From the IMG/VR virus record IMGVR_UViG_2737471865_000007: DNA of 13,979 bases; one strand, 5' to 3'. Under the pieces are notes generated by a model. It had not been told where the DNA came from. It did not search any database and saw only the letters and a list, made by a program, of their open reading frames with translations. A program made the position numbers and the translations under genes. The stretch's first letter is position 1; each line of letters starts with the position of its first letter. Origin of the DNA: a virus. Its lineage: Duplodnaviria; Heunggongvirae; Uroviricota; Caudoviricetes. Shown piece after piece: positions 10,835-11,000 of this stretch.

Positions 10835-11000
10835 CCTAAAGAGCATTAGCGACTCTTTAGGCAATCTGTGTGTGGGTCACTCTGTGACTTTAGCTATACA
10901 GCTAAACCGACTACGTCGGCCTGTGTGTGGGGTGCTTACAGCACTTAAGCCTCTGGCTTAACCCTTCGGGCCTCTGTGTGGGGCGTAGTGCGATAGCACG
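10835..11000. repeat. Three tandem about 55-bp units, each hairpin + CTGTGTG(T)GGG(G) + hairpin
   Basis: Unit 1: hairpin 10835-10861 (9-bp stem), CTGTGTGTGGG 10866-10876, hairpin GTCAC/GTGAC. Unit 2: hairpin CCGAC/GTCGG 10907-10919, CTGTGTGTGGGG 10921-10932, hairpin GTGCT/AGCAC. Unit 3: CCC/GGG hairpin 10962-10970, CTCTGTGTGGGG 10973-10984, hairpin GTGC/GCAC. Confidence 0.45.

Follow-up and report, generated by a model that had tools for sequence, protein, structure and literature searches.

The DNA analysed here is the IMG/VR virus record IMGVR_UViG_2737471865_000007, 13,979 nucleotides (nt) long and referred to below, at its full length, as the window. It represents a whole circular replicon of ~14 kb and equals contig JWZN01000062.1 of the Escherichia coli assembly GCA_000819365.1. 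The plasmid family to which it belongs is tight and found only in E. coli, with members of 13.2-14.3 kb, and is present in 7 of 5426 complete E. coli genomes. Its genes encode major capsid, tape-measure, Dit-like and tail-completion proteins together with two small helix-turn-helix (HTH) proteins and an O-like replication initiator, and include no terminase, portal, relaxase or partition genes. PLSDB types all family members as non-mobilizable. The structural proteins share only ~25% identity with their counterparts in rV5-like phages, a comparison of the window with 50,697 phage records gave no DNA match and no description of the family was found in the literature searched. The element is probably an undescribed plasmid-borne phage satellite. 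Our subject is a regular array of short hairpins and G-rich core sequences which this plasmid carries beside its replication origin.

The array is located in a gene-free stretch of 2.3 kb (9181-11472). From left to right, this includes ~1 kb of conserved DNA with a dif-like site, the iterons of the origin, an AT-rich stretch, a C-run/G-run element, a constant hairpin (hairpin A) and the array, a terminal module, a further hairpin and the promoters of the rep operon. The array therefore sits between the origin (iterons and AT-rich stretch) and the rep promoters at ~11279 and ~11407. By analogy with the layout of lambda-type origins, we infer that the AT-rich stretch or the C-run element may act as the unwinding element. 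The C-run/G-run element (10753-10800) is conserved in all relatives including the divergent L055, with run lengths that vary.

Anatomy of the array

The three G-rich cores lie on the + strand with start-to-start spacings of 55 and 51 nt and align as a single repeat family (Table 1). Eight perfect hairpins with stems of 3-10 bp surround them: hairpin A, three in cassette alpha, three in cassette beta and one opening the terminal module END1. On the - strand, hairpin A is followed by TTTCATTT, which gives it the look of a terminator. The predicted fold of 10830-11085 is more stable than that of any of 200 dinucleotide shuffles of the same interval (0/200 as good) whether it is treated as RNA (z = -5.5 for the + strand, -4.9 for the - strand) or as DNA (z = -5.4 and -5.9, respectively). 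The octamer TGTGTGGG outnumbers every other 8-mer of the window, being found 11 times where 0.28 would be expected (0/200 shuffles), and CTGTGTGG occurs 8 times against 0.31 expected. An earlier note, made from the letters of the window, had proposed a regular array of repeated units with G-rich cores and hairpins. The perfect stems, the non-random fold and the over-represented octamer show that this array is real. The note had given each unit one core and two hairpins; the hairpins are borne out, but there are three to a unit rather than "one plus one".

Table 1. Coordinates of the array and of the features around it (a vertical bar in a sequence marks the putative nick or recognition point)
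Feature	Position	Strand	Sequence or description
Inverted half-copy of core	10821..10829	-	CCCACAAAT on +, ATTTGTGGG on -; left flank of hairpin A
Hairpin A	10834..10862		arms 10834-10843 / 10853-10862, 10 bp, 100% complementary; 9-nt loop (10844-10852); constant left anchor
Core 1	10866..10876	+	CTGTGTGTGGG; split CTGTGTGT|GGG; putative point T10873|G10874, 11 nt after hairpin A
Cassette alpha	10876..10919	+	three perfect hairpins
Alpha hairpin 1	10876-10888	+	GTCAC-TCT-GTGAC
Alpha hairpin 2	10889-10906	+	TTTAGCT-ATAC-AGCTAAA
Alpha hairpin 3	10907-10919	+	CCGAC-TAC-GTCGG
Core 2	10921..10932	+	CTGTGTGTGGGG; split CTGTGTGT|GGGG; putative point T10928|G10929, 9 nt after preceding hairpin
Cassette beta	10932..10970	+	three perfect hairpins
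Beta hairpin 1	10932-10944	+	GTGCT-TAC-AGCAC
Beta hairpin 2	10945-10961	+	TTAAGCC-TCT-GGCTTAA
Beta hairpin 3	10962-10970	+	CCC-TTC-GGG
Core 3	10974..10983	+	CTGTGTGGGG; split CTGTGT|GGGG; putative point T10979|G10980, 9 nt after preceding hairpin
Terminal module END1	10983..11078	+	hairpin GC-GTA-GTGC-GATA-GCAC-GCA-GC, ATGTGGA, 7-bp-stem hairpin (11018-11051), GCGAG..CTCGC
Hairpin opening END1	10983-11004	+	inner GTGC-GATA-GCAC at 10988-10999
Three invariant octamer copies	10050-10057, 10209-10216, 10420-10427	-	TGTGTGGG; left of iterons; without hairpin cassettes
Iterons of plasmid origin	10530..10720		~6 copies of near-palindromic ACCTGTTGGAATTTCCCACAGGT; TRF period 23; context, outside array
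AT-rich stretch	10716-10752		
C6-TAA-C6 / G-run element	10753-10800		C6-TAA-C6 then GGGGAATGGGGAGGGATCAGAGAGTGGGG, G-quadruplex-type motif on + strand
Hairpin GGCC-CCTAAAT-GGCC	11123..11141		right edge of region; terminator-like; stem covaries in relatives (GCGC/GCGC, GGCCC/GGGCC)

The octamer is also oriented with respect to the origin. In 17 complete members, + strand copies occur 19-330 nt to the right of hairpin A and three invariant - strand copies 430-1070 nt to its left. A copy on the contrary strand near 9711 is present as well in about half of the members, and this polarity is a strong trend but no rule.

Cassette gain and loss and selection on the stems

The array was compared in ~45 family members drawn from plasmid, genome, metagenome and read-assembly collections, in which it recurs as a modular structure. 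The design is constant: hairpin A, CAAT, zero to three units each composed of a core (x-TGTG(TG)n-G2-6) and a cassette, and then one of two terminal modules. The alternative module, END2, has the same layout as END1 and is found in about half of the relatives. Cassettes are drawn from a small pool and their order is fixed (alpha, gamma, delta, beta). Those of class I (alpha, beta, beta', a beta/alpha hybrid and zeta) comprise three hairpins joined by CTT and AA, while in those of class II (gamma and theta) the G-run of the core pairs with a downstream C-run around an inner hairpin. Cassette alpha is either there or missing as one block, and the breakpoints of cassette presence and absence always fall at a core. 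Cassette beta' differs from beta by compensatory changes (GTGCC/GGCAC, CTTAGCC/GGCTAAG). Unit spacing ranges from ~46 to 97 nt without helical phasing. Left of hairpin A, one sub-lineage (L013, L002, L036) has a class I cassette in reverse orientation, eta, with inverted cores on both sides of it; the site is empty in L025. With these inverted elements on its left, hairpin A is the point at which the cores change polarity. The T-rich tail of hairpin A is kept in three lineage variants. In L055 its 9-nt loop is the reverse complement of that found elsewhere, as if flipped between perfect arms.

Iteron sets (10530-10720) and Rep genes (12505-13419), which are separated by the conserved array and promoter region, are swapped as modules between plasmids otherwise 90-95% identical (L013, L015, L055), and at least four iteron types occur within common flanks among the relatives. 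Because the core and array remain constant while iteron/Rep modules are exchanged, the core is not the binding site of the initiator. An iteron sequence, CCCACAGGT, does resemble the core, but a Rep half-site is ruled out by the at least four unrelated iteron types associated with the same core and array.

The array is absent from every library, collection and paper searched. It is not a common E. coli repeat of the REP or BIME type, the cassettes being found only on this plasmid family. Among IMG/VR viruses, a scan for three octamers returned 53 matches, all tandem or CRISPR repeats and none a related array; the octamer matches in type I-E-like CRISPR repeats are unrelated. The hairpin A pattern gave one IMG/VR match, an unrelated terminator, and a literature search with the octamer gave no relevant match.

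To assess the stems, 14 distinct class I cassettes were aligned by hand to the three-stem layout and the pairs counted. Standard Watson-Crick pairs occupy 99.5% of the 220 stem cells, 11 of the 17 stem pairs show changes on both sides, and there is neither a one-sided (G.U-type) change nor a single G.U pair. No shuffle reached the observed covariation, and sliding the partners reduced pairing to 20-53%. These figures are generous because the alignment was fitted to the structure and its rows include paralogs as well as orthologs, but their direction is clear: selection keeps the stems. Compensatory changes of the kind that the earlier note had proposed to look for in homologues are present across paralogous and orthologous cassettes. 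Cassette loops vary freely and are mostly 3 nt long, the linkers CTT and AA are conserved, and at least five diverged paralogs retain the arrangement of three hairpins.

Searches of Rfam 15 (including the C4/CI antisense RNAs and ctRNAs) with the window, L001, L013 and L055 gave no array match at E values up to 1-5, and no convincing sigma-70 promoter for the array was recognised on either strand. Stems of 3-7 bp are too short for extrusion from duplex DNA, so that the hairpins would form in the single-stranded state. Together, the evidence points to hairpins in single-stranded DNA rather than to an RNA gene, and we regard the chances as evenly balanced that the array is a DNA-level signal read in single-stranded form.

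Nick sites, priming signals and other readings of the array

We tentatively favour a reading in which the array is a tandem row of HUH-type sites for nicking or termination, recognised in single-stranded DNA, by analogy with the transfer origins (oriT) of F/R100-type (MOBF12) plasmids. The array would be a cis-acting DNA element, working when the + strand is single-stranded, in which the short perfect hairpins keep the core TGTGT|GG exposed. An HUH enzyme supplied in trans would nick or rejoin DNA at the cores; candidates are a relaxase encoded by an F-like plasmid in the same cell and any other nickase of equivalent activity. A plasmid without a relaxase could thereby start or end single-strand transfer, or rolling-circle copying, beside its own origin. 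A start at one core and an end at another would lead to gain or loss of the intervening cassettes and therefore to copy-number polymorphism. What we infer here is nicking by any enzyme, the identity of that enzyme and the biological use; the resemblance in core and spacing is observed and is as follows.

In the F oriT record, the hairpin GCAAAAAC-TT-GTTTTTGC is followed by GTGGGGTGT|GGTGCTTT, and R100-type plasmids carry GTAGTGTGT|GGTGCTTT. F TraI nicks after GTGT, and T141' (-1), G142' (-2) and G144' (-4) form an intrastrand triple needed for cleavage and transfer (PMC2504302). The corresponding bases of the array may fold the strand into a cleavage-competent U-turn, as in the F TraI site: TGTGT|GG, with the F/R100 triple bases and a purine at +1, is present in all three units of the window and in all 78 units of 38 distinct arrays. 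Units 2 and 3 agree with R100 at every base from -5 to +2. They also have the 9 nt between hairpin and T|GG that F and R100 have, and unit 1 has 11 nt; across the 38 arrays this distance is most often 9 nt, being 9 nt in 48/78 units, 11 nt in 15/78 and 7 nt in 9/78. Core 2 with the start of its cassette, GTGTGGGGTGCTT, matches the R100 nic region, GTGTGTGGTGCTT, at 12 of 13 positions (GTGTG(G/T)GGTGCTT). The best local alignments (12/13 with R100 and 14/17 with F) are equalled by 9/500 and 28/500 shuffled arrays, respectively. Like F and R100, the array thus has a 5' inverted repeat, 9 nt and then GTGT|GG, with an R100-like GGTGCTT after the nick point in unit 2. In contrast to these oriTs it is tandem (2-4 sites), has differing hairpins and a drifting G-run and (TG)n, and comes without tra genes or a relaxase.

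The nic site of R388 offers a second comparison. It resembles the array in having a hairpin and 9 unpaired nt before the nick and a purine after it, and differs in that its relaxase, TrwC, reads the sequence of the proximal arm specifically whereas the arms of the array all differ. The R388 core, GTCT|AT, is also unlike that of the array. For TrwC, the 9 nt between IR2 and the nick are nt 17-25, a purine is needed after the nick, and two nic copies can be recombined (PMC4176350). F TraI that has started at a full oriT ends at a second, 35-bp oriT in 80% of transconjugants, deleting the DNA between the two (PMC3074121). From such termination by TraI and recombination by TrwC, cassette polymorphism with its junctions at the core would be expected. 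E. coli is rich in F-like plasmids, and some small plasmids are known whose only portion of the F oriT is the hairpin with nic.

Several observations weigh against nicking at the cores. The similarity to F and R100 is short and marginal (p ~0.02 for R100 and 0.06 for F) and an equal score is reached elsewhere in the window. The bases that confer specificity in F and R100 differ from those of the window at -7 to -9: positions -5 to -9 read GTGGG in F and GTAGT in R100 compared with CCTGT, CCTCT and TCTGT in the window, and agreement with R100 is restricted to -5, plus -6 in units 1 and 2. TraY, TraM and IHF sites, on which F-type initiation depends, were not recognised near the array, with no IHF consensus in 10700-11200, and a MOB-suite oriT search found nothing. 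Slippage in (TG)n and in the G-run shifts the spacing by 2 nt (range 7-13 nt) and alters the bases after the nick point. Tandem nick sites are an abnormal layout for an oriT. The three hairpin-less cores on the left and the scattered cores are left unexplained, as are the three different hairpins of each cassette and the terminator-like look of hairpin A. Finally, the polymorphism is not diagnostic because short direct repeats flanking hairpins are deleted by replication slippage without any enzyme.

Unlikely, though well suited to the location, is that the hairpins are single-strand initiation (ssi) signals, which stay free of SSB and guide primase, in the style of the G4 origin (G4-oric) or the R1 G-site, or guide primosome assembly. 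Opening of the AT-rich element would expose the + strand on its right side and the - strand on its left, and the primers made there would become leading strands crossing the origin. A distance of ~80-250 nt separates the array from the AT-rich stretch of the iteron origin, and the cores lie on whichever strand DnaB would encircle, + to the right of the origin and - to the left. The stems, Watson-Crick only and with a DNA fold of z = -5.4, would be stable hairpins on the strand exposed at the origin, as ssi signals are expected to be. The complementary-strand origin of phage G4 consists of three hairpins followed by a CTG primer start, and each of the three window units presents a hairpin followed by CTG. 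In other small plasmids, palindromic ssi elements adjoin iterons and are dispensable while affecting both copy number and stability (PMC6854812; PMC5935869), behaviour that fits a variable number of cassettes. Like the G4 origin and plasmid ssi sites, the array groups short hairpins on the template strand, places CTG directly 3' of a hairpin, adjoins the origin and has a dispensable, accessory character. However, the C of CTG occurs in only 48/78 units (62%), with A, T or G elsewhere, and some arrays (L005, L025) have no CTG at all. The conserved TGTGTGG(G), G-run included, is needed by no known primase site and G4 has no counterpart of the GT-rich core. The units of the array are in addition repeated and polymorphic. 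O/P-type replicons use DnaB-coupled general priming with no known requirement for ssi, and the left-side copies lack hairpins.

A structured non-coding RNA, the earlier note's series of small RNA modules, has a low probability in our judgement. In one version, a - strand RNA ending at hairpin A would display CCCCACACAG seeds on its hairpins for pairing with UGUGUGGG in other - strand transcripts, a style of regulation seen with the P4 CI RNA or P1 C4 RNA; in another, a + strand leader with G-rich cores would form R-loops at the origin. Such an RNA would account for the fold scores (z = -4.9 to -5.5 as RNA), for C-rich cores that remain unpaired between hairpins in the - strand fold and for the T-rich tract after hairpin A in three lineage variants. 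Complementary copies are available at 10050, 10209 and 10420 and in the capsid-operon leader hairpin (7566-7600). On the + strand, CCCTTCGGG would give a UUCG tetraloop and a weak promoter, TGGACT-17-TATGAT, is found at 10339-10367. The expected signs of an RNA gene are nevertheless missing: none of the four family members searched has an Rfam match at E up to 5, no conserved - strand sigma-70 promoter occurs in 11000-11300, and the terminator-like hairpin at 11123-11141 would halt - strand transcripts from further right. The lack of any G.U pair in 220 stem cells, the loops of mostly 3 nt and the free loss of cassettes also speak against an RNA.

We attach little probability, too, to the idea that the array arose as a by-product of mutation or recombination and serves little purpose itself. 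Its GT-rich core would be a recombination-prone repeat (of the RecA-preferred GT-rich or Chi-like kind) marking module borders around a swappable iteron cassette, and template switching in quasi-palindromes would keep the arms complementary. Much of the polymorphism could be read in this way: cassettes always break at the core, the (TG)n tract and the G-run differ in length, stems never change on one side alone, as correction from a template predicts, and the hairpin A loop is inverted in one lineage. Iteron/Rep modules are exchanged between constant flanks which both carry the core, and on either side the cores are directed away from the origin, as Chi is about oriC. The core, however, differs from E. 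coli Chi, GCTGGTGG, which does not occur in the window (0 copies) and has only GTGG in common with it, and no known enzyme reads the core. The fixed cassette order is not what a by-product would be expected to show, and the three-hairpin layout in at least five diverged paralogs, with conserved linkers and free loops, resembles the outcome of selection. The contrary-strand copy at ~9711 in about half of the members breaks the polarity.

Very unlikely is an array of protein sites read in duplex DNA, whether centromere-like, a gyrase-binding stability locus similar to pSC101 par or sites for the terminase of a helper phage. A conserved 8-mer is indeed repeated 2-4 times in one orientation, the plasmid needs a stability function and a packaging site while encoding neither ParAB nor terminase, and one relative is a head-to-tail trimer of phage-genome size. 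The par locus of pSC101 is gene-free and consists of gyrase-binding, hairpin-forming repeats beside an iteron origin; it has no partition proteins, tolerates partial loss and is not known to have a conserved octamer of the array's kind. The array is also gene-free repeat-and-hairpin DNA next to an iteron origin on a plasmid without partition proteins, and its partial loss is likewise tolerated. Compensatory evolution of stems would not be expected of duplex sites, and the spacing is variable and unphased with no partner genes. The earlier note had suggested repeated protein-binding sites, and recognition of the core by a protein remains likely; it is the two forms in which this was put, centromere and packaging signal, that are unsupported. 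For a centromere, there is no ParA/ParM/ParB-type gene, spacing is unphased and varies (~46 to 97 nt), and cassette number varies too (0-3). For a packaging signal, no terminase small-subunit gene was found in the window, no phage DNA similarity and no related IMG/VR array were detected, and contig break points in the family are scattered with no fixed genome ends visible.

Three remaining candidates were rejected: a CRISPR array (repeats of 8-12 nt fall short of the usual 24-40 nt, shared hairpin cassettes take the place of unique "spacers" and no cas gene is present), hairpin promoters of the N4 virion RNA polymerase (5-7 bp stem and 3-nt loop, alike in hairpin style with no downstream motif in common) and KOPS/dif logic (no convergence of the cores towards the dif-like site is seen).

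The surrounding element and its possible mobility

Further octamer copies in the window form palindrome halves in the capsid-operon leader hairpin (7566-7600), belong to codons of a 39-amino-acid (aa) open reading frame or, in one case, lie in the Dit-like gene. The leader hairpin, CCACACAG-N18-CTGTGTGG at 7566-7608, overlaps a perfect DnaA box, and in the divergent L017 both of its arms have changed together (CCCAACCGC / GCGGCGGG). A related motif that the earlier note had placed at 7592-7599 beside a DnaA-like box is confirmed here, CTGTGTGG at 7593-7600 overlapping the perfect box TGTGGATAA; a second, at 5822-5829, is not, as this site reads TCTGTGGATAA (CTGTGGAT), a DnaA-box consensus that differs from CTGTGTGG. 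The 39-aa open reading frame (8076-8195, +), MGIKNSASAWQKARFHHPHIIKAIEVVGVLALMLALCVEV, is unannotated and conserved, has a good ribosome-binding site and is retained in L017. The two octamer copies within it amount to nothing more than codons for HHPH and CVE.

To the left of the iterons, ~1 kb of gene-free DNA (9377-10330) is better conserved among relatives than are the coding regions, with no consistent open reading frame and no Rfam match, and may contain a packaging site, a long RNA or maintenance sites. It includes a dif-like Xer site at 9968-9995, AGTGTAGATAA-GATCTA-TTATGTTAAAT, which agrees with E. coli dif at 24/28 positions, has an exact XerD arm and is followed 20 nt downstream by an IHF consensus. 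The only match of the gene-free region to phages is a 50-nt dif-like site. A homologous dif-like sequence, AGTGCAGATAA-CGTCTA-TTATGTTAAAT, occurs in a non-coding gap (~2520-2550) of the lytic Seuratvirus WildeMaa (L010). The only Rfam near-match in the window, ctRNA_p42d at 3666-3706 on the - strand (23.6 bits, E = 0.25), is a hairpin of terminator type that follows the tape-measure gene, where it is probably no more than a bidirectional terminator.

Searches for distant relatives with the capsid, HTH and 49-aa proteins returned close relatives only (the weakest having at least 82% identity for the capsid and HTH proteins, and 85% over about half of the query for the 49-aa protein), and a search with the Rep protein returned nothing useful. 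The predicted structure of a neighbouring 195-aa protein was unusable (pLDDT 41). Three unusual records bear on the lifestyle of the element. L005 (NZ_CP043822.1, 39,610 bp), deposited as a "plasmid", is a head-to-tail trimer of a 13.2-kb unit near phage genome size, which suggests packaging as multimers or else an assembly artefact. L018 (NTNY01000053.1) is a 30-kb variant in which strA/strB, an insertion sequence and other cargo occupy the gene-free gap that separates the tape-measure gene from the tail-completion gene (equivalent to 3569-4120 of the window), so that the element is able to carry resistance genes. An unrelated, phage-like 38-kb contig (L057, ERR13318355_18094) has homologues of the 49-aa and 69-aa proteins encoded at the head of the plasmids' rep operon, and the replication module therefore circulates beyond the plasmid family.

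About one in ten E. coli plasmids is without a recognisable transfer route (PMC12282955). If the cores are nick or priming sites, the array would show how an element with neither relaxase nor terminase secures single-strand initiation and perhaps conjugative mobility, and an unrecognised oriT-like module of this kind would account for some of those plasmids. The array would also be a compact natural test of the minimal HUH nick site (generic hairpin, 9 nt, GTGT|GG), in which the number of sites changes between near-identical plasmids. Even as an accessory of the origin, it is a three-hairpin cassette with perfect compensatory evolution that is missing from the RNA and repeat libraries searched. 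The fullest version, a phage-satellite plasmid with tandem, self-rewriting mimics of relaxase nick sites beside its origin, is doubtful; if true, this 14-kb element could spread inside helper-phage particles and also as a passenger of F-like conjugation, and its hairpin cassettes would be reshuffled whenever a transfer began at one core and finished at another.

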